Shown here in pieces: positions 2,998 to 23,021 of a stretch of 41,622 nt of DNA. Origin of the DNA: Pseudomonadota bacterium (lineage in GTDB: Bacteria; Bdellovibrionota; FAC87; UBA2466); contig JAYSWN010000024.1 of assembly GCA_043718025.1 (NCBI GenBank), positions 1-41,622 on the forward strand, read 5' to 3'. The notes below the pieces were generated by a model that was given only the letters and a program-made list of their open reading frames with translations, did not search any database and was not told the DNA's origin. Made by a program: the position numbers and the translations under genes. Numbering within the stretch: the stretch's first letter is position 1; every line of letters starts with the position of its first letter.

Positions 2998-3143
2998 TTG
3001 CCCCCGGTGGTGACCGTTAACCGCTTACGACCCTTTTGACGACGGCGACTCAGAATTAACTGGCCATCCCGACGCTGCATGCGCTTACGAAATCCATGGG
3101 TGCGCTTACGTTTCACGCGGCTTGGCTGATAAGTACGTTTCAC
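2994..3143 (-). CDS. rpmH: 50S ribosomal protein L34
   Basis: Below the ORF-track cutoff. GTG start gives [49 protein letters not shown] (49 aa), with AGGAAGG upstream; divergent from dnaA. Confidence 0.96.
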
Positions 3144-3386
3144 AAAGAACCTTCCTATAATTGTTCGAAAAAACTCCCGGATAGTAAGCCAATGTTGAAG
3201 AGCGAGTCAAACCTTTTGGCTTGGCGCGGCGATCCAAGGGCTCCGCTAACCATAAAGTCCTGCCGCATTAAAACAAGTGGGATATTGGGAAGTTACTGAA
3301 TTGCCAAAAGAGGGGGGCTTTGTTACCCCATTGGACTCATCCCGCCCATTTATACGGCAGCAGGATTTTTTAAGCGGTGACCACAA

Positions 3387-4688
3387 ATGGACGATAGCCT
3401 CTGGGCTCGAATTTGCGACAATTTACAGACTCGGTTGCCGTCCCATGTCTACCATTCGCTTGTCGAAACAGCTGACTTCGAGCTCGACGAAAAAGGTAGT
3501 TTCAATCTTAGGTTTGGGGATCACTTTTCCAAAGAGAGTTTTGAAGAAAAGTGTCTCTCCACCCTAAAAGAAACGCTCGCTGAATTTTCGCTCGGTACCA
3601 AAAATATAAATCTGCTCGTAAAGGAGTCGGGAACGGCCAACCCGCAAATTGAATTTAATGTTCGAAGTATTAACCCCTTCGACAGCAAGTACACTTTTGA
3701 AACTTATGTAACCGGTAGCAACAATCAGTTTGCCCATGCTGCCTGTTTTGCGGTCTCAAATAAACCGGGCCATTGCTACAACCCTCTTTTCATTTTTGGT
3801 GGAGCCGGTCTTGGAAAAACTCATTTGCTCAAGGCAATTGGCCACGAGATTTTTCTACGTCAGAGCCATTTAAAAATTCTTTTTCTAACCAGCGAAAGTT
3901 TTACCAATGAGTTGATCCAAGCACTTCGTGTGGATCGGATGCGGGAATTCCGCGAAAAATACCGAAACCGCTGCGACGTATTATTGTTGGACGATGTGCA
4001 TTTTTTAGCCGGTAAAGAGCGGACTCAAGAAGAGTTTTTCTACACTTTTAATTATCTTCACGAGGCCGGAAAACAGATTGTAGTTACTTCAGATCGCTAC
4101 CCAAAAGACATTCAAGGGTTAGAAAATCGTCTGCAAACCAGGTTTGAATGGGGCCTTGTCGCCGATGTGCAACCGCCCGAAATTGAAACTCGAATTGCCA
4201 TTTTAAAGAACAAGGCCGAGACCGAAAACATTCGGCTTCCCGATGATGTGGCGCATTTTATTGCTTCCCATATTACTACGAATATTCGGGAACTAGAGGG
4301 ATCCCTACACCGGCTCCAAGCCTACGCTTCGCTTACCGGCGTGCCGATTTCCGTCGATTTGTGTCAAATGATTTTGAAAGACATCATTCCGAAAACAAAG
4401 CATTCCCTGAGTGCCGACGGAATTCTAAAAATCGTAGCGCTGAATTTTAGTTTGAAGGTGACCGACCTCAAATCAGAAAAACGCACCCGTAAAATGACCA
4501 TTCCCCGGCAAATTTGCATGTATCTCATGCGAAAGCACCTACTGCTTTCTTATCCTGAAATCGGTAAACTAATGGGCGGAAAAGACCACACCACCGTTAT
4601 GCACGCAGTTTCCAAAATCGCTGAAATCCAGCGCACCGACCCTGAAATTTTTGACAATATAAATAAAATAGAAACTCTGTTCCGCTAG
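3387..4688 (+). CDS. dnaA: Chromosomal replication initiator DnaA
   Basis: YNPLFIFGGAGLGKTHL (Walker A), LLLDDVHF (Walker B), NIRELEG, and the domain IV signature GGKDHTTVMHA. Confidence 0.98.
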   Translation: MDDSLWARICDNLQTRLPSHVYHSLVETADFELDEKGSFNLRFGDHFSKESFEEKCLSTLKETLAEFSLGTKNINLLVKESGTANPQIEFNVRSINPFDSKYTFETYVTGSNNQFAHAACFAVSNKPGHCYNPLFIFGGAGLGKTHLLKAIGHEIFLRQSHLKILFLTSESFTNELIQALRVDRMREFREKYRNRCDVLLLDDVHFLAGKERTQEEFFYTFNYLHEAGKQIVVTSDRYPKDIQGLENRLQTRFEWGLVADVQPPEIETRIAILKNKAETENIRLPDDVAHFIASHITTNIRELEGSLHRLQAYASLTGVPISVDLCQMILKDIIPKTKHSLSADGILKIVALNFSLKVTDLKSEKRTRKMTIPRQICMYLMRKHLLLSYPEIGKLMGGKDHTTVMHAVSKIAEIQRTDPEIFDNINKIETLFR

Positions 4689-4720: not shown

Positions 4721-6283
4721 ATGTCGTCGAACGGCTTAGCTCAAAAGTCCGCAGCGGTTTCTGCCTATTTTCCCGGTCTCTCACGAAGGACGATCTACTT
4801 TTGCTTTGGCTTAAGCCTGCTTTTACATCTGATCGCCGCTTTTTTCAGCGAGGGTTATCAAAATCACGATGAGCATTTTCGCATTCTCGAGATGATGCAT
4901 CGACGTCTGCTGGCGCCCATGGCCACAGATACGCTTGAACGCTGCCCTGAATGCCTGATGTTCTCATTTTTTCAACCCGCCACCCTTGGCCTGGCGGTAA
5001 AAGGGCTAACTCTTTTCGGCATCACAAACCCCTTCACTCTGGCCACCATTTTTAGATTCTTTTCGGCACTACTCGGTTGGGTGAGCCTCATTGCCGTTGC
5101 TTATTCTTTAGCCTTTTGGGTTCGTGACGTGACGACGCGGCGCCATTCTCTCTACGCACTCTGTTTTGTCTGGTTTTTTCCCTATCTTCACGCTCGCCCC
5201 TCGCCTGAAAGTTGGGCGGGAAGCTTCTTTTTTATCTCGCTAGGGCTAATGCATTTTGTAATCGAGCGCGGAAAAAATTCCGGAGCAAAAAAACCGTTCA
5301 TTCATGAAATTTTAGTCGGCGGACTATGGGCATTTGCCTTCAGCTGCCGCTACCAAATGGGCGTCGTCATCTTGTTCGTAGCGCTTTGGTATCTATTTTT
5401 GGGTAGGGCCGACGGGTCCAAGCGTTGGTGGAGTTTCGCAAGAATGTGTTTCGGGTTCTTACTCGTTGCGTTGGCCGTCGAAGGCATCAACACCTGGGGC
5501 TACGGTTTCTGGTACCCGACGCACTGGAATTATCTCGACCGTCTCGTTTTCAAAGGCGGAGTCCTTCATCAATTTGCTTCCGGACGATGGTTTTATTTCA
5601 GAGAAGTCTTTTTGCAAGGGGGACCGCCCTTTAGCATCCTGCTCATTGCCGGCACAATCTTAGGATGGATTCTATTTCCGCGGCACGTACTCACCTGGGT
5701 TACCGCTTCCTTCTTCGTGGTCCATCAGATCATGGCCCACAAACAGATAAATTATCTATTCCCTGTGGCAAAAGGCGCGGTGGTGCTTTCAGTCATGAGC
5801 CTAAATGAAATTTACTGCTGGCTAAAAAGCCTGCGAGTTAAATCGGCGCTGGTACGCCTTAGACCGTATGCCGTGGGAATGAATTTTGCGCTCCTTTTTC
5901 TTGCCTGCGTTTTCCCATCGTCGACAGTCATCGGCGTTTATAAATACCTTTACGCCCAACAACGCCCTATTTCACTGCTTAGCGTCGATGGAGACTGCTT
6001 CGAAGTGGTTGGTTTTCCGATCACTTTTTACCGGCGTGCCGGAACCGAAGTGAAAAAATTTCCAGACTATTTCCAGCTCGAATCTGCAGTTGGCGCCTCA
6101 ACGGAAATCAGTTGGATTGGAAGAAAAGGGCTGTCTTTGCCGAAAGAGGCAGAAAAGCTGCAACGGTGGTGCAAATTAACTTACGCACCTTTTCCAAATT
6201 GGGTCACCCAATTGAATTTCAATGGCTGGATCGAGCGCAGCCGAATCTGGAGCATCTATCAATGCCAGAAGCCCCAAAGTTAG
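4721..6283 (+). CDS. Polytopic GT-C glycosyltransferase, ALG9/PIG-B (GT22)-like mannosyltransferase
   Basis: Many hydrophobic segments. First-loop motif SEGYQNHDEHFRILE resembles PIG-B PDExxQxLE; HKQINYLFP resembles HKExRFLxP. Confidence 0.7.
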   Translation: MSSNGLAQKSAAVSAYFPGLSRRTIYFCFGLSLLLHLIAAFFSEGYQNHDEHFRILEMMHRRLLAPMATDTLERCPECLMFSFFQPATLGLAVKGLTLFGITNPFTLATIFRFFSALLGWVSLIAVAYSLAFWVRDVTTRRHSLYALCFVWFFPYLHARPSPESWAGSFFFISLGLMHFVIERGKNSGAKKPFIHEILVGGLWAFAFSCRYQMGVVILFVALWYLFLGRADGSKRWWSFARMCFGFLLVALAVEGINTWGYGFWYPTHWNYLDRLVFKGGVLHQFASGRWFYFREVFLQGGPPFSILLIAGTILGWILFPRHVLTWVTASFFVVHQIMAHKQINYLFPVAKGAVVLSVMSLNEIYCWLKSLRVKSALVRLRPYAVGMNFALLFLACVFPSSTVIGVYKYLYAQQRPISLLSVDGDCFEVVGFPITFYRRAGTEVKKFPDYFQLESAVGASTEISWIGRKGLSLPKEAEKLQRWCKLTYAPFPNWVTQLNFNGWIERSRIWSIYQCQKPQS

Positions 6284-6421: not shown

Positions 6422-6486
6422 TGTTAATAACTTGTTGATAACTCTGTTGATACGTTGTTGATAAGGTGTTGATAACTTGTTGATAA
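6422..6486 (-). promoter_or_regulatory. Array of six DnaA-box-like 9-mers at about 11-bp period
   Basis: On the plus strand: TGTTAATAA, TGTTGATAA, TGTTGATAC, TGTTGATAA, TGTTGATAA, TGTTGATAA, with start-to-start spacing 11, 12, 11, 11, 11. Confidence 0.85.
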
Positions 6487-6490
6487 CTAG

Positions 6491-6543
6491 TTATCCCCAG
6501 TTTTGGAAAGTTATCCACAGCGCTGTCCACAGGGTTATCCACA
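6491..6543 (+). promoter_or_regulatory. Four DnaA boxes (two perfect TTATCCACA)
   Basis: TTATCCCCA 6491-6499, TTATCCACA 6511-6519, CTGTCCACA 6523-6531, TTATCCACA 6535-6543. Confidence 0.9.
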
Positions 6544-6578
6544 GGGGTTTCCTTAACAAAAACGAGCGCTTAACTGAG

Positions 6579-6650
6579 TTATCAACTTATCAACAGTGCT
6601 AATTACTACTACTATAAGATCTAGTATTACTCTTTATTAAAAGAATAGAG
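6579..6650 (+). promoter_or_regulatory. Basal unwinding element: tandem DnaA boxes, DnaA-trios and AT-rich DUE
   Basis: TTATCAACTTATCAACA, spacer GTGCTAAT, TAC-TAC-TAC-TAT (6604-6615; complement of 3'-GAT-5' trios), then AAGATCTAGTATTACTCTTTATTAAAAGAATA. Confidence 0.8.
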
Positions 6651-12824: not shown

Positions 12825-13611
12825 ACGGATCTTAAGGTCCGTTTTAATATTACTAATACTGATGCCGCTGTGTGCGTGCACTGAACGACGGCAAAACAGC
12901 CTGACTCGGGCAGCTGAAGATAAGATCAATCAGGGCGCTTATATCGAAGCGGTGGATCTTTATCATAAGGCGATCGCATTAAACCCCGACAATAAAGTCG
13001 CCATTAAAACACTCTACAAGCTGGGGTTTGCGCAAGAGGTCTATCTAAAAGACTTTGATGGCGCCACGTTTAGTTACCAGGAATTCATTCGGCTAAATCA
13101 GGACCGGGTTTCAATTTATGAAGTCTTAAAGAGAGTGGCGAATATATATTTTGAGCAGAGCCGCGATTCTGAAAAATCTATCGTCGCCTACCGCAAACTG
13201 ATTGAGATGGATTCAGAAAGTCTCGAGCGCGACCTTTTTGAGTTTCGGGTGGCCACCTCTTTCTTTCGTGCCAATAACTTTGAGCAGGCTCGGCTTGAAT
13301 TTCAAAATCTTGTCGAAAAATTTCCCAAAAGCACCTTTATACCCAGGGCGCGTTTCGAAATTGGAAATACCTATTTTATGGATGGAAAATACGACGTGGC
13401 GATTGAGGCACTCAAGCAGGTTCTACGGCATCACCCCCAAAGCGAACAGGCGATGGACGCCCAATTTCTGATTGGGCAATGCTACGAACACGATGGAAAG
13501 TTTACTAACGCGCTGCAGATCTTTGAAGGGCTTAAAGACCGTTATCGGGACCCAGGTCTGGTTGAAATTCGTATCAATGAGCTACGAAAGAGAACGGCGA
13601 AAAGTAAATAA
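12811..13611 (+). CDS. TPR-repeat lipoprotein (CpoB/BamD-like repeats)
   Basis: Basic N-terminus, hydrophobic stretch and lipobox-like LCAC from ATG 12811. TPR repeats such as [17 protein letters not shown] and [10 protein letters not shown]. The ORF-track start at 12709 lies deep inside gyrA. Confidence 0.75.
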
Positions 13612-13620
13612 GGAACGCCC

Positions 13621-13833
13621 ATGCGAATCGATCCTAAATTTATGAGATTTGCCTCTCAGTTGAGCAGCATTGTGATGACGAAAGCGCTGCTCATTTATGG
13701 CGCATATCGACTTGGTACCTACCTTGACACCCGCTTTGGCACGTATCCGCTCTTCTTTTTTACATTAATTACCGCTGCTTCGGGCTTGGGCCTTTTTTGG
13801 ATCATCAAAGTTATCGAGAAAAATCGCATCTAG
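13621..13833 (+). CDS. AtpZ/AtpI-family small membrane protein (ATP synthase gene 1)
   Basis: 70 aa with two hydrophobic segments around GTYLDTRFGTYP (family pattern GxxLDxxxgTxP); upstream of atpB. Confidence 0.75.
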   Translation: MRIDPKFMRFASQLSSIVMTKALLIYGAYRLGTYLDTRFGTYPLFFFTLITAASGLGLFWIIKVIEKNRI

Positions 13834-13870
13834 AATGCTCAAGAGCTAAGCTGGGAAAGGCGCTCTCAAG

Positions 13871-13999
13871 TTATCCACAGGACCCGGACAACATTTTACG
13901 ATCTCGAGAAAACGTTCTCAAAGTTATCCACAGGCCACTTTAAAATGAGGCCGCTATCTAAAAATGGAGCCCCAAAAGTTATCCACAAGGTTATCCCCA
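13871..13999 (+). promoter_or_regulatory. Second DnaA-box cluster (non-origin)
   Basis: TTATCCACA at 13871, 13924 and 13979, and TTATCCCCA at 13991. All co-oriented, in a 421-bp gap with no ORF in the track. Confidence 0.85.
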
Positions 14000-14254
14000 T
14001 GCGTGTGTTCGTGTTTTTCTAGAGGAAGAGATAATCGCCCTTGTTAACAGGTTAATCGTAGGTTGATTGTCTGATTCTCGGAGCAGCCACAAGGTTAACT
14101 GCGGTTGATCGGGGGATGATTTGGTAAATCACAATAGACCGCATGGCGGAGCGTCACTTAACTAAGCCCAATCAATTGGCGGGAGAATCGGCTAACGCGT
14201 TTAAATAGTTGAAACTTAGCGCCAGCGGGGATAAGTAGGGACAGTTTTCAAACT

Positions 14255-14989
14255 ATGAATGCTCACGGACCTACAAGCTGGTTGCTGCAAATCCCTGGTT
14301 TGCCGCACGACTCGAACTTGATTCATATCAATGCCTCGGTTGTTACCGTCGTGGGCATCGGCATTGCTTCGCTCATCGCCAACCGAGCACTCAAGGGGCG
14401 CGAAGAAGAAAACCTCATTCCGAAAAAGAAGCCGGGCTACGCCACCGTAGTGGACACCATTATGGACGGCCTTTACGCGATGATTGAGGACACGTTGGGC
14501 CATGGTGCTGAGAAGTACGTGCCATTCATCTCCGCTTTGTTTCTTTATGTGTTCTTTAACAACCTCTTAGGATTGTTGCCGCACTCAAGTTCGAGCACCT
14601 CGAACGTAAATACGACCTTTGCGTTGGGTATTTCCTCTTTCGCTTACTACAACATTATGGGTATTCGCGAGCACGGGCTAGGCGGGTATCTTAAGCACTT
14701 TTTGATGGGACTTGGCCCGGCCGGTATTTTAATTGCCATTTTGGAGATGGTGTCACACGCCATTCGTCCGGTTTCCTTGGGAATTCGTTTATTTGTGAAT
14801 ATGTTCGTAGACCACGCCGTAGCCTCTAAATTTGGAGAGCTGATGGCTTGGGTATTGCCGGTTCCATTATTGCTTTTTGGAATCTTTGTTTGTACCATCC
14901 AGGCCTTTGTTTTTGCGACTATTTCGGCGGTGTACGTACAAATGGCGACGGAGCACGAACACGGTGCTGATCACGCCCATGGGCATTAG
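14255..14989 (+). CDS. atpB: ATP synthase F0 subunit a
   Basis: NNLLGLLP, RPVSLGIRLFVNM (essential Arg), IQAFVFATIS, His-rich tail. Confidence 0.96.
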   Translation: MNAHGPTSWLLQIPGLPHDSNLIHINASVVTVVGIGIASLIANRALKGREEENLIPKKKPGYATVVDTIMDGLYAMIEDTLGHGAEKYVPFISALFLYVFFNNLLGLLPHSSSSTSNVNTTFALGISSFAYYNIMGIREHGLGGYLKHFLMGLGPAGILIAILEMVSHAIRPVSLGIRLFVNMFVDHAVASKFGELMAWVLPVPLLLFGIFVCTIQAFVFATISAVYVQMATEHEHGADHAHGH

Positions 14990-15037
14990 GAAATTTAGTC
15001 GGAACGTTTAGAAACTTTTTATTCAAGGAGTAAGTTA

Positions 15038-15349
15038 ATGAAGATGTCTCGTTTGGTGCTGTTAGGTAGCTTGTTTCCCTTAGCTTCGTTCGCTGAAGAA
15101 GCGACCCACGGTGCCGTTACATCGGCCGCTCCGTGGATCGCCTTAGCGGTTGGATTCGGAATGGCTCTAGCCGTAATGGCGGCCACTACGGCTCAAGGCC
15201 GCATTGCCAGCGCCTTTATGGACGGTGTTTCCCGTAACCCAGCGGCATCGGACGGAATGAAGACACCGTTGATTCTTGGCCTCGCATTTATCGAGTCCTT
15301 GGTGCTGTTCACCGTTCTTATTGCTTTCATGCTTATTGGAAAGCTGTAA
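15038..15349 (+). CDS. atpE: ATP synthase F0 subunit c
   Basis: RNP loop, FIESLVLF (ion-binding Glu), AAGGAG RBS. Confidence 0.96.
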   Translation: MKMSRLVLLGSLFPLASFAEEATHGAVTSAAPWIALAVGFGMALAVMAATTAQGRIASAFMDGVSRNPAASDGMKTPLILGLAFIESLVLFTVLIAFMLIGKL

Positions 15350-15367: not shown

Positions 15368-18178
15368 TTAGGTTCGTAGTTCATTATTCTTTTTAGATGC
15401 TCCATCCCTTGGCGACGAGGGGTGGAGCATTTCTTTTAGGAATTTACCGGTGTGTGAGCCCTCGATTGCCGCTAGCCCTTCGGGAACTCCTTCGTAAAGA
15501 ACTTCTCCGCCGTGAATTCCCCCTTCGGGCCCCAAATCAATAACGTAGTCTGACTGCTTAATTACATCGAGGTTGTGTTCAATCACGATCACGGTATTTC
15601 CCTGATCTGCCAGCCGATGAAGAATATCTGAGAGTCGCAGTACGTCTTCGAAATGCAAACCGGTGGTGGGCTCATCCAATATATAAAGAGTTCGGCCCGT
15701 TGACCTTTTGAGTAACTCTTTGGCCAGCTTAATTCGTTGGGCTTCACCGCCGGAAAGAGTGAGAGCGCTTTGTCCCAAGTGAACGTAGCCGAGACCAACA
15801 TCATTTAAGGTGCCGAGCTTGTGTTTGATTTGCGGAATTCGTTCAAAAAACTCAGAAGCTTCGGCAATCGTTAGGGCCAGAACCTGTGCAATGTTTTTTG
15901 TGCGGTACAAAATCTCGAGCGTCTCACGGTTGTAGCGTTGGCCACGGCAAAGTTCACACTCAACATACACATCGGGAAGAAAGCTCATGGAGATTCTCAT
16001 GTTGCCGTCGCCATGACAGGCATCGCAGCGGCCGCCTTCGACATTAAACGAGAAGCGCCCTGGGCCATAGCCGCGTACTTTTGCTTCCGGTAAACCTGCG
16101 AACAGAGCACGAATCTCACCGAAAACGCCGGTATAAGTGGCGGGGTTAGAACGAGGGGTTCGGCCGATGGGGCTTTGGTCGACATGAATGACTTTGTCGA
16201 TCGCCGTCAGCCCCTCTACCTTCTCCACATTAAGATGTGCAGGAATCGGCAGACGCTGGAATGAAGCGTGTATTGCCGGGTACAAAGTGTCCAGAACAAG
16301 CGTGCTTTTGCCGGAGCCTGAGACGCCGGTAATGCCGATTATATTTCCCAACGGAAAAGAGACGGTGACGTTTCTCAAATTATTTAAGCTCGCGCCGATG
16401 AGTCGGATCATTCGATTTGGGTCCTGCGGTCGGCGGGGATTTGGGACGGGGATTTTTCGAACGCCATTAAGATATTGAGCCGTAATACTGGTTTGGTCGC
16501 GCAGTAGCTCTTCAGCCGTGCCGGCAAATAAAACCTCGCCGCCCTTTGCGCCCGCGCCTGGCCCCATATCCACTACGAAGTCTGAGCGGCGTATCGTCTC
16601 TTCATCATGTTCGACTACCAATACTGAATTGCCGTCGTCACGTAGCCGCTCAAGAGTTTGAATCAGCTTCTCGTTGTCGCGCGGGTGTAAACCAATGCTA
16701 GGTTCGTCGAGCACGTATAGGACACCAACCAGTGAAGCCCCGATCTGGCTCGCCAACCGAATGCGTTGGGCTTCGCCCCCCGAAAGCGAATCAGCTGACC
16801 GGCCAAGTGAAAGGTACGTCAGACCAACATCGATCAGAAACGTCAGGCGGGCAGTGATCTCTTTAAGAATAGGTGATGCCACCAAATTCTGGGAGGAGGT
16901 AAATTTTATTCCGCTTAGTGTGGTTAAACATTTTTCCAAATCGAGACGGCAAACATCCGCAATCGAATGATCGGCAATGCGAATCGAGAGAACTTCCTTT
17001 TTCAGTCGCGACCCTTTGCATTCGGGGCACGGGCGCGAAGAGTAAAAAGCGTCTTCGGGACCGAAAAGATCGTCATCCTCTTCTTCTTCAGCGGCCATGA
17101 GGGTGGGAATGACTCCACTAAAATCTTCGTCGCCAAAGAGCGCCAAGTTTTTATGTTCGGTGGGAAGTTCTTTCCATGGCGTGTCTAAGCTGACTCCACG
17201 TTTTCTAATGGGCGAAAAGAACGCTTCGAGCCATTTTTTCGTTTTTGAACCCCAAGGCTCAACGCAGCCGCGATTCAAAGATAGATCAATGTCTCCAATG
17301 ACCTTATTTGGATCGATAAAGTCCTGAGTGCCTCTTCCCTCGCATACCGGGCACGCCCCATGCTCGCTATTGAATGAAAAATTTCTCGGCTCAAGCTCAG
17401 GAAAATTAATACTGCATTCGACGCAGGCGCGTTTAGTGGAATAGGTCATCAACTTTTTAGAATCGACCTCTTCAACCTCGACTATTCCGTCGGCTAACCC
17501 CACGGCCATTTCAACGGCTTCGGCTAAACGATAATCAATTCCGGCGCGCAGAAAAATACGGTCTACAAAAACAGAGATGTCGTGCTTAGCGGTTTTTTTT
17601 AGTTTGATCGGCTCCGAAAGCGACAGGTCTTGCCCGTCAATGCGCACGCGGGTAAAGCCGCGCGACTGCATCTGGTAGAGCTCTTTCTGGTACTCACCCT
17701 TTTTACCGCGAACAATCGGGGCTAATACCGAAATACGGCTTCCTTCGGGAAGTCGCAGAACCTGTTCGACGATCTCATTTACCGTCTGGCGTTGTACCTC
17801 TTTTCCGCAAGAAGGGCAGAAAACCGTGCCCAGGCGCGAGAAAAGCAATCGTAGGTAATCGTATATTTCGGTAATGGTGCCTACGGTAGAGCGCGGGCTT
17901 CTACTTACCACCTTTTGGTCGATGGAAATTGTTGGTGAAAGGCCGTCGATAAAGTCTACGTCCGGCTTTCTCATTTGTTCTAAGAACTGCCGAGCGTATG
18001 CGGAAAGCGACTCTAAGTAGCGCCGCTGACCCTCGGCATAAATCGTGTCAAAGGCGAGCGAAGACTTTCCTGATCCACTAAGGCCGGTAATGGTGACCAG
18101 TTTATTTCGAGGAATATCTAGCGAGATGTTTCTGAGGTTATGTTCTCGCGCTCCCTTTACTATGATGTGTGAAGACAC
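15368..18178 (-). CDS. uvrA: Excinuclease ABC subunit UvrA
   Basis: GAREHNL, two Walker A motifs ([16 protein letters not shown]), two LSGGEAQR signatures, CxxC zinc fingers; GTG start. Confidence 0.98.
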
Positions 18179-20524: not shown

Positions 20525-21470
20525 TTCTAAAAATCTCTGCATCCTTTAAGAGTTTAGTAACCCATTCTTTATACGCTTTTACTTCTTTTTCTTTTTTGAT
20601 CGATTTTACGATTTCAAGCTTCGCCTCATTAAATCCCAACCGGCGGTAGGGTTGCTTTTCTAACATTTTTAGCAAATGCACACCGTACCGGCTCTGAATG
20701 GGCTTGGAAATGGTACCCACGGGCAAGGGGAATGCCTCATTGAAGGCGGCAATTTTTTCATTTTTAGCGAAAAAACCTAAATCTCCGCCTTTTACTGCAT
20801 CCGGGCTCAGGGAATACTTTCGGGCCGCCGACTCAAAGGTGATGGCATTGGCAATAATTTCTTGGCGAATTTTTTCCGCTTCCTCTCTAGTAGGTACCAC
20901 AATTTGTAAAACGTGGACCCTTTCTGGAGAAAAAAGTTCGCGCTCATGCTGTTTAAAGTATTTTTTTGTTTCATCGTCGGAAACTAAGGTCTCCGAGGAG
21001 AACAGTGACTCAGAAAGTTTTTCGACCAAAAGTTGGTCTTCAATTCGTTTTTTCAAAAATTCTTCGGTGGTATTCTGCTTACGCAGCATCTCTTCGAAGC
21101 CGCCCGGGGGGTAGCCGTCTTTCCAATTCGACAGCCGTCCTTCAACCTCTTCACGAGCAATGCGCACATTTTTTTTGGCGGCCTCTTGCCTTAACAAATT
21201 AAGAATAAGAATCTCATTCAAAGCCCGTTGCTTAAGCTGGTTAATGAGTTTGGTGTTGGTATTGGAGACGTCGTCTTGTTCAGCCTTAAGTTGATTGAAT
21301 ACAAACTGAAATTCTCGCGCCAAAATGGATTCACCGTTAACCCGTGCGATAATTTGCTTAGAAGGGTCAGGCGCAGGCTCGGTACAGCCCGCGACTATGA
21401 GGCAAACACCAATAATGGCGGCAATTCGTACGGGCTTAAGGAGACGGCGTTGGGCAAAAAACACCTGCAA
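20496..21470 (-). CDS. PrsA/SurA-like parvulin PPIase lipoprotein
   Basis: Lipobox-like VAGC, IIARVNGE, FESAARKYS...GGDLGF...YGVHLL. Start codon uncertain. Confidence 0.85.
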   Translation of the reverse strand: MQVFFAQRRLLKPVRIAAIIGVCLIVAGCTEPAPDPSKQIIARVNGESILAREFQFVFNQLKAEQDDVSNTNTKLINQLKQRALNEILILNLLRQEAAKKNVRIAREEVEGRLSNWKDGYPPGGFEEMLRKQNTTEEFLKKRIEDQLLVEKLSESLFSSETLVSDDETKKYFKQHERELFSPERVHVLQIVVPTREEAEKIRQEIIANAITFESAARKYSLSPDAVKGGDLGFFAKNEKIAAFNEAFPLPVGTISKPIQSRYGVHLLKMLEKQPYRRLGFNEAKLEIVKSIKKEKEVKAYKEWVTKLLKDAEIFRNESLFSTVS

Positions 21471-21491
21471 ATACTAATGGTCGGGGGCGCG

Positions 21492-23021
21492 ATGGGCAAG
21501 GTTTACGCGTTAGGCGGCTGGGCCGGCCGCTTTGTTCCGTGGAGCGCTATCCTTACAATCTTCTTAGGGAATTTGGCGCTGGGGGCGACCGTTCCCGAAA
21601 CCACCTTAATCTTTACCGCAGACCGTCAATCAGAGCTGCGTACTTGCGGCTGCTCTTTGGATCAACTGGGTGGGCTGGCCCGGCTACCCGCGGCTTTAGG
21701 GTCGCGGGGGGTGATTTTGAGCGGGAAAAAAGCAGGCGGCTTATGGCTGGACGGCGGTGATCTCTTCTTTTCGTCGCTTGGACTGGCGGAGGAAAGGCTT
21801 GCGGCGGAGATGCAAAATGCCACTTTACTGGCGACTCTCTACAGAAAATGGGGGGTGGTGGCGATGACCCCCGGGCCAAAAGATCTAGCCGGGGGAGTGG
21901 AGACGTTGAAACGCTTAGCCGATTTGGGGCATCTTAAGGTGCTTTCCGTTAACTTGGCCGATAAAAAAGGCGAACTGCTTTTCGACCCTTTTTTCGTGAT
22001 TGAACATCAAGGGGTTAAATTCGGAATCGTTGGGGTGAGTGGAGCGGTGCCGTTTGCTCCGGTGACGGAATTGACGGTATTGCCGGCCCCGCCATTGTTA
22101 CAAACCGCTATCAAAAAAGTACGCGAGCAGGGCGCAACGATTGTCTTGGTGCTTTCGCAGTCTGGAATCGAAGTCGACAAGGCTCTGGCCAAAGACTCCG
22201 GCGCTGATTTCTGGCTAAGCGCGGCCGCCACGGATAATTTGAAAGAGCCTTTGGAGCTTGGAATTACTAAAGTGGCGCAGCTTCTGCCGTGGGGGCAACA
22301 AGTGGGCCTGTTTCATTTGAAGGGCGGAAAAAGCCGTTATGAGGCGGTGGACATAAAACAAAGTTTTAAAGAGGACCCCGCAATACGCCGGGATGTAAAT
22401 GCGTTGAAGAAAAAACGAGCGGCTTTAGAAACGAGTCAGCAACCTAAAGCAAAAGGCTCAACGAGTTTTGTAGCTAACTACGAAACTTGTCGTGGTTGCC
22501 ACGCGAAGCAAGTGGCGTTTTGGGAGTCTACCAAACATGCCTCGGCCTATTTGGTGCTCTACGCCAAGAACCAGCACTTTGATGCGGAGTGCATTACCTG
22601 CCACACTTTGGGGTTTAAGCAGGACAAAGACTTTATGAAAATCGCGCAGCCTCTACTCTTAAAAGGGGAGCCGGTGATACCCGGTAAACCTTTTGTCGAA
22701 AAGATGATGGCAGAAATTTTTATGAAAGCCCATGTGACCGGCGCCATTGACTCGCGGGAGCAGCCAGAAATTTACTCCAAGCTTAAAAAAGAGTACCACG
22801 CGTCTTTGGCGGAACTAAGTACGAGCGGAAAACTCGGTAAAGTGTTTATGGGAGTGCAATGTGAACACTGTCACGGGAACCGAACAGACCATCTGGTTAA
22901 AAATCGCCGCCTTGGAAAAGTAAAAGAAGCTTCGTGCCGCGAATGCCATCGTGCCCCCAATGCGGGCGAGTTTTCATCTGCAATGATTCCCAAGGTGGCG
23001 TGCCCCTCAATGGGTAACTAA
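21492..23021 (+). CDS. Exported UshA/5'-nucleotidase-like (CGC motif) domain fused to a tetraheme c554-like cytochrome
   Basis: ELRTCGCSLDQLGGLAR and LDGGDLF; four CxxCH motifs (CRGCH, CITCH, CEHCH, CRECH); WESTKHASAY. Start set at ATG 21492 to avoid the antisense overlap. Confidence 0.8.
   Translation: MGKVYALGGWAGRFVPWSAILTIFLGNLALGATVPETTLIFTADRQSELRTCGCSLDQLGGLARLPAALGSRGVILSGKKAGGLWLDGGDLFFSSLGLAEERLAAEMQNATLLATLYRKWGVVAMTPGPKDLAGGVETLKRLADLGHLKVLSVNLADKKGELLFDPFFVIEHQGVKFGIVGVSGAVPFAPVTELTVLPAPPLLQTAIKKVREQGATIVLVLSQSGIEVDKALAKDSGADFWLSAAATDNLKEPLELGITKVAQLLPWGQQVGLFHLKGGKSRYEAVDIKQSFKEDPAIRRDVNALKKKRAALETSQQPKAKGSTSFVANYETCRGCHAKQVAFWESTKHASAYLVLYAKNQHFDAECITCHTLGFKQDKDFMKIAQPLLLKGEPVIPGKPFVEKMMAEIFMKAHVTGAIDSREQPEIYSKLKKEYHASLAELSTSGKLGKVFMGVQCEHCHGNRTDHLVKNRRLGKVKEASCRECHRAPNAGEFSSAMIPKVACPSMGN

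Follow-up and report, generated by a model that had tools for sequence, protein, structure and literature searches.

A cluster of four DnaA boxes, kept by selection in one Bdellovibrionota genus, lies between atpZ and atpB and is likely an origin-proximal DnaA sink that restrains re-initiation, like the DnaA-box clusters (DBCs) of Bacillus subtilis; we give this reading a rough probability of 0.55. The cluster occurs in a 41,622-nucleotide stretch of DNA (the window) from a 4.14-Mb Bdellovibrionota assembly (G000) that is 92% complete and represents an uncultured relative of the predatory Bdellovibrio. As judged from sequence comparison, it is a real, selected, genus-restricted, non-origin DnaA-box locus. 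The comparisons also show it to be independent of its neighboring genes and without an unwinding element.

Four DnaA boxes behind atpZ

Gene order in this part of the window is yidC-rnpA (leftward), dnaA, an inserted gene, oriC, dnaN, gyrB, gyrA, a TPR gene, atpZ, the gap, atpB, and atpE, with uvrA after atpE on the opposite strand. The atpZ-like gene is the last of the dnaN-gyrB-gyrA-TPR-atpZ run. The gap behind it measures 421 bp in the window; across loci it is prone to insertions, and its length varies between about 40 bp and 15 kb. The cluster and oriC are 7.3 kb apart, with five genes between them, a distance that agrees with the original prediction. The same prediction placed the cluster directly upstream of atpB. 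Both do share the gap, but the cluster abuts atpZ (the first box begins 37 bp past its stop codon in the window and 2 bp past it in G001) and lies 255 bp before the atpB start. Features of the region are listed below, where G001 is a second genome of the same genus and L039 is a metagenome locus.

13621..13833, + strand: atpZ-like gene (PF09527, below the curated cut-off), the left boundary of the cluster
13850..13858, − strand: tentative remnant of a reverse box, matching at 5 of 9 bases, 21 bp before box 1
13871..13879, + strand: DnaA box 1, perfect, with 5′ AG flank; counterpart of the leading forward box in G001 and L039
13924..13932, + strand: DnaA box 2, perfect
13979..13987, + strand: DnaA box 3, perfect
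13991..13999, + strand: DnaA box 4, one mismatch, 12 bp past box 3; the same variant is the last box in L039
14044..14057, + strand: TTAAC-NN-GTTAA palindrome overlapping an IHF-site-like motif (putative protein-binding site)
14209..14237, + strand: predicted atpB promoter (TTGAAA, 17 bp, TAAGTA), not part of the cluster
14255..14989, + strand: atpB, F0 subunit a
15038-15349: atpE, downstream of atpB

The perfect box TTATCCACA is read on the + strand at 13871, 13924, and 13979, and a one-mismatch box, TTATCCCCA, on the same strand at 13991, giving spacings of 53, 55, and 12 bp. Three perfect boxes and one near-perfect box in a single orientation had been predicted at 13871-13999, each perfect box directly preceded by AAG, and both observations were verified in the sequence. 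The arrangement is far above chance. All four boxes fall within 129 bp of non-coding DNA, the chance expectation for three perfect boxes within 108 bp is 6e-6 (1.5e-6 if co-oriented), and random placement produced such a triple in 4 of 200,000 trials. A genome-wide count, proposed along with the original prediction, gave 31 perfect boxes in the assembly against 19 expected under a fifth-order Markov model. Clusters of at least three boxes (≤1 mismatch) number only two, oriC and the cluster in the atpZ-atpB gap. An AG flank 5′ of the box is found at 3/3 cluster boxes, at 3/4 boxes located at oriC or at two conserved sites, and at 0/24 scattered boxes.

An assembly artefact, raised as a concern with the original prediction, has left no sign. 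Positions 13000-15300 are unbroken, with zero differences, in contigs of two runs (possibly the source of the assembly), and 13820-14117 is unchanged in low-depth contigs of two further runs from the same study. In two runs, 298-bp contigs spanning the cluster alone were considered as special and set aside as ordinary low-depth scatter. The interval from box 1 to box 2 holds one sigma-70-like promoter in antisense orientation, which was rejected as a signal because 2.4 were expected. No perfect parS match was identified in the whole assembly, and none on the window contig.

Conservation and remodeling within the genus

The cluster is present in three copies from two lineages, one being G000 and the other G001 together with L039. 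AtpB identity is 80% between G000 and G001 and 96% between L039 and G001. In G001, the same gap contains five boxes, two reverse and then three forward, and L039, the single further copy recovered by a metagenome scan, has these five boxes in gap-free register. Between G001 and L039, the boxes are identical at 40/45 positions, the spacers at 42/71, and four-fold atpB sites at 66/119, which argues that selection acts on the boxes and leaves most of the spacer free. The G000 copy is more distant from both (41/91 and 39/90 four-fold atpB sites identical), and blastn of its gap against G001 yields a match confined to atpZ. Despite a gap that blastn cannot align, G000 keeps four boxes and the TTAAC-NN-GTTAA palindrome.

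Box order is ++++ in G000 and --+++ in G001 and L039, where the reverse and forward boxes stand back-to-back, 12 bp apart, and an intact reverse box occupies the place of window positions 13850..13858. An alignment across relatives had been suggested as a check on boxes and spacing; the boxes are kept in G001 and L039, but the spacing is not. The claimed phasing at about five helical turns fared similarly, in that the 53- and 55-bp spacings are present in the window but the relatives have spacings of 44 and 21 bp. None of the five distinct spacings departs by more than 0.25 turn from a whole number of helical turns (chance about 3 in 100), a slight hint that the boxes may be phased on one helical face.

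Among other genera, 25/25 genomes with the whole gap in hand are without two boxes within 150 bp. No second cluster of at least three boxes was found in 17 of these genomes (20 oriC-flanking stretches, covering the oriC-atpB neighborhood). With these genera managing without it at this spot, the cluster is dispensable family-wide, which counts against the sink reading. The contigs of two more genomes of the same genus (G002 and G003) begin inside atpB, and neither atpZ nor the gap region is present in either assembly. A pair-pattern search of 34 family genomes returned just oriC, one coding repeat in G004, and scattered pairs, and boxes followed by TTAAC-NN-GTTAA occur in 2/38 genomes of the order, G000 and G001. 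The coding repeat (L065:2998-3063, on G004:C52) consists of five box matches at 12-15-bp spacing in a small ORF and is a false positive. Between two forward boxes, G001 (L003:1271-1285) and L039 (266-280, approximate) have the same 15-bp block, although their neutral identity is 55%; G000 lacks it. The block was rejected as a wider motif, with one-mismatch matches in four other genomes being at the control level.

Comparison with oriC

The origin of the window is unambiguous. It lies between the inserted gene and dnaN, at the GC-skew minimum (5-6 kb), and aligns across eight family members.

6422..6615, no strand assigned: oriC, with a reverse 11-bp box array, forward boxes, a last box at 6587, and DnaA trios at 6604-6615

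The 40-mer that holds the trios is the least stable in the window. The claim that the cluster is richer in perfect boxes than oriC is correct for perfect boxes (three against two), but oriC (6422-6595) has eight at ≤1 mismatch. All three copies of the cluster were free of a DnaA trio run and of any oriC-like melting-prone stretch, in agreement with the predicted absence of trios and an AT-rich tract; the least stable 40-mer is about −48 kcal/mol at the cluster and −39 kcal/mol at oriC. The trios, AT-rich unwinding element, and skew minimum that would define a second oriC are thus absent from the cluster. A duplication of oriC was considered and rejected, there being no similarity past the boxes and their flanks. 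Nor does the arrangement resemble a bipartite oriC. In the known examples described in PMC4285127, the clusters lie on either side of a single gene and cover about 2 kb in total; here they are 7.3 kb and five genes apart, and the window contains no box cluster upstream of dnaA. The oriC of Bdellovibrio bacteriovorus, as described in PMC5124646, belongs to the same phylum, has the standard box consensus, and is located upstream of dnaN, but it is an origin with an unwinding element, and the cluster has none. The DnaA of B. bacteriovorus is reported there to bind standard boxes.

Several other features near oriC were observed. Its left arm (6422-6488) is made up of 11-bp repeats, each unit a one-mismatch reverse DnaA box; this array is conserved in the family and matches the exact IHF consensus in three places. 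It may be a site of DnaA/IHF competition or a target of the second DnaA (DnaA2) described below. In G016, two extra reverse boxes (L067:3308-3328) precede the oriC array by about 140 bp, beside an inserted gene. The insert between dnaA and oriC in the window is a 520-aa membrane-like ORF (4721-6283) with no Pfam or NCBIfam match and with paralogues on contigs C57, C169, and C41. Unrelated genes occupy the same slot in G001 and G016, which identifies the dnaA-oriC gap as an insertion hot spot, like atpZ-atpB. Elsewhere in the window, the best NCBIfam match of the ORF at 21228-23021 is a UshA-like (seleno)protein model (NF041198), below the cut-off.

An IHF-like motif and comparison with datA and DARS

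The IHF-like motif downstream of the boxes matches the consensus given in PMC10950094 exactly in G001, while the window and L039 copies each deviate from it at two positions. Its distance from the last box is 45 bp in the window, 37 bp in G001, and 26 bp in L039. Past it, only two-mismatch, non-conserved boxes were found, with no strong far-side box in any of the three copies. The palindrome was rejected as a regulon motif; the genome has four TTAAC-NN-GTTAA sites, about three are expected from base-composition arithmetic, and at least two of the other three sites are inside long ORFs. Among the G000 proteins, IHF alpha is above its cut-off, the best IHF beta match is just below, and HU is present. 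No match to the Hda family reached the cut-off in this 92%-complete genome, the two best matches being the DnaAs.

The datA, DARS1, and DARS2 loci of Escherichia coli K-12 were scanned in the same way as the cluster. The datA locus has forward boxes. Its exact IHF site follows box 2 by 56 bp, and a further 84 bp separate that site from box 3. The cluster shares with datA a position near the origin and immediately after a transcription unit, boxes in one orientation, and a downstream IHF-consensus-like site of the same orientation, in a host with IHF alpha and a probable IHF beta. It differs in that the IHF site of datA is between boxes 2 and 3, whereas the motif of the cluster is past all boxes, imperfect in 2/3 copies, and at a variable distance of 26-45 bp. 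The hallmark of datA, two essential boxes of one orientation with an IHF site at a fixed spacing between them, is therefore lacking; the cluster resembles the upstream half of datA and, with no strong box past the motif, is not a member of this class. DARS1 and DARS2 each consist of a forward box, 5 bp, a reverse box, 3 bp, and another reverse box, and their head-to-head pair is functionally essential according to PMC10380432. The cluster is likewise a non-origin group of DnaA boxes, but none of its three copies contains the head-to-head I/II pair with a 5-bp gap or the box III arrangement.

A second DnaA and head-to-head box pairs

A second full-length DnaA (DnaA2, with domains I, III, and IV) is encoded in G000 and is about 30% identical to the origin-linked DnaA.

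G000:C66, about 16670-18130 (L073:3169-4632): dnaA2; also at L063, L097-L109, and L111-L117
G000:C1:41709-41729 (L072:3210-3230), and L078-L096: mutS head-to-head box pair (gap of 3 bp), with mutS on one side and a SpoU methylase-grpE-dnaJ run on the other

At least two domain-IV matches were found in 28/33 family genomes, 3/4 genomes of the sister family, and 6/23 others in the phylum. The Walker A, Walker B, and arginine motifs of DnaA2 look intact. A box is located 180-250 bp upstream of dnaA2 at 19/20 loci that include the region, 13 of them with a head-to-head pair. The rpmH-dnaA gap (window 2998-3386) has no DnaA box at ≤1 mismatch, which leaves the origin-linked dnaA (window 3387-4688), unlike dnaA2, without obvious autoregulation. 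The tails of 16 of 22 DnaA2 C-termini end in a short acidic-hydrophobic motif (a loose pattern, chosen post hoc), which we take to resemble beta-clamp-binding motifs. Given that no Hda match passed the cut-off in G000, DnaA2 could be a clamp-linked regulator; a predicted complex of DnaN with the DnaA2 tail scored 0.14 against a mark of 0.32, which speaks neither for nor against this idea.

Head-to-head box pairs occur somewhere in 25/33 family genomes. Loci were fetched for one pair per genome, and 18/19 were at mutS and/or the SpoU-grpE-dnaJ genes, an assignment made by eye from ORFs compared with Pfam-annotated G000 genes. The mutS pair resembles datA boxes 3/4 or the DARS core, although the gap in the DARS core is 5 bp. 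It is followed by a weak third reverse box in G000 and G011, and its distance to oriC in G007 is about 0.47 Mb. The dnaA2 and mutS box sites are older than the cluster and separate from it.

A predicted atpB promoter

A promoter-like motif, TTGARW-17 bp-TA, precedes atpB at 31/31 loci with enough upstream sequence (2/33 were too short and were excluded; L009 and L010 are near-identical). The last box is 210 bp from the predicted promoter in the window, about 125 bp in G001, and 1.5 kb in L039. In L039, a 468-aa minus-strand gene (1.4 kb) stands between the cluster and the atpB promoter, another predicted minus-strand ORF begins at the other edge of the cluster, and no atpZ is present within 200 bp of contig upstream. 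A two-mismatch reverse box overlies the −10 region of atpB in G000 and G001. Such a box is found at 8/31 promoters, six of them without the cluster, which makes it a probable by-product of promoter sequence. A scan of the gap found no + strand intrinsic terminator.

Alternative explanations

The original prediction offered DnaA control of atpB and atpE, which would tie initiation to ATP synthesis, as one function of the cluster. We consider this very unlikely. The cluster is 210 bp from the predicted −35 element in the window and about 125 bp in G001, the IHF-like motif between them could loop the DNA, and the two-mismatch box covers the −10 region in both genomes. These points are outweighed by the family-wide occurrence of the promoter, set against a cluster missing from all 25 other-genus gaps, by the recurrence of the −10 box at clusterless promoters, and by L039, in which a gene intervenes. 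Boxes that are both near a promoter and co-conserved with it, as at DnaA-regulated promoters, are not what is found here (promoter at 31/31 loci, cluster in three). A literature search also turned up no paper whose title or abstract links DnaA boxes with the atp operon. The claim of control and the coupling to ATP synthesis are unsupported on the same evidence. DnaA bound behind atpZ might instead act as a transcription roadblock that halts or attenuates dnaN-gyrB-gyrA-TPR-atpZ read-through into atpBE, or might regulate whichever gene has been inserted in the gap. The short distance from the atpZ stop to the first box, the missing terminator, and the minus-strand ORF that begins at the cluster edge in L039 are in its favor, and PMC10950094 describes DnaA stopping RNA polymerase at asnC and datA box 2 as a partial roadblock. 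L039, however, keeps the cluster although its 200 bp of upstream contig contain no atpZ, and the box orientation beside atpZ is unlike between G000 and G001. With its own promoter motif at all loci, atpB would be altered little by such a roadblock. We regard this explanation as unlikely.

A positive role at the origin, as the far half of a bipartite origin looping to oriC or as a DnaA-loading site, is suggested by the proximity to oriC, the possible helical phasing, and the reverse-then-forward order of G001 and L039, which is also the order of the family oriC. It is quite unlikely given the separation from oriC, which exceeds the span described for known bipartite origins, the lack of homology to oriC except in boxes and flanks, and the other genera, which have a near-identical oriC architecture and no cluster. 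Similarly doubtful is an independently arisen datA-like brake within one Bdellovibrionota genus, in which IHF would bend the DNA, DnaA-ATP would be hydrolyzed, read-through from dnaN and gyrase genes would act as a switch, and the site would stand in for the missing Hda in a lineage with two full-length DnaA paralogues. If true, the phylum would gain its first known initiation regulator, and a datA-type element would have been born recently and convergently. Recharging of ADP-DnaA to ATP-DnaA at a DARS-like site, also part of the original prediction, is highly improbable. The cluster does combine non-origin boxes with an IHF-like motif, as in DARS2, but the head-to-head pair is missing from all three copies and such pairs are found in the family elsewhere, at mutS and upstream of dnaA2. 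Scarcely credible, finally, is a cluster without function, whether arisen by chance or decaying as a relic. In its favor, there are two independent lineages only, and both reverse boxes have apparently been lost in G000. Against this, the chance expectation is about 1e-6 to 1e-5, box conservation is well above that of neutral sites, and the AG flank agrees with that of the conserved sites.

A probable DnaA sink near the origin

Titration or inactivation of DnaA is the best reading of the cluster, and this half of the predicted titration/recharging role stands. We propose that DnaA, in the form of either of the two paralogues, would bind the boxes on one helical face. As the site is copied moments after initiation, its binding capacity would double just when free ATP-DnaA must fall. 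In the weakest step, the motif 26-45 bp downstream may recruit IHF, which could curve the DNA and contribute DnaA-ATP hydrolysis of the datA type. Such a brake would be useful in a genome that has IHF alpha, a probable IHF beta, and no Hda match over the cut-off, and the variation in box number and orientation suits a loose sink more than the exact geometry of a catalytic site. Points against the reading are the few copies, three from two lineages, the small size of a sink with four boxes, and an IHF-like motif that is imperfect in two copies.

The closest counterparts are the six DBCs of B. subtilis, which restrain initiation (Okumura et al., PMC3245932). According to that report, deletion of five of the six individually had no clear effect, and across Bacillus, DBCs are upstream of differing genes yet near oriC. 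The Streptomyces coelicolor clusters named in PMC10950094 are a further counterpart. Like these DBCs, the cluster is intergenic, outside yet close to oriC, lineage-specific, and untied to one neighbor. It has several boxes (four in the window, five in G001 and L039), and its neighbors differ in L039. Unlike the B. subtilis set, it is a single cluster of four to five boxes in a Gram-negative host, its distance from oriC is only 7.3 kb, and it is followed by a conserved IHF-like motif that is a putative binding site. The original prediction had considered it the best candidate for an undescribed system; this does not hold, as origin-proximal DnaA-box clusters are a known kind of element.

The kind of element is well known, and comparison did not bear out the coupling to ATP synthesis. 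The literature covered, main texts with few subscription journals, yielded no extra-origin cluster or second DnaA in Bdellovibrionota. According to a 2023 review (PMC11318664), no initiation regulator has been identified in B. bacteriovorus, which makes a selected extra-origin DnaA cluster a concrete candidate for the phylum. The family-wide second DnaA and the mutS pair may outweigh the cluster itself in value. The cluster shows such a site emerging and being remodeled within one genus.
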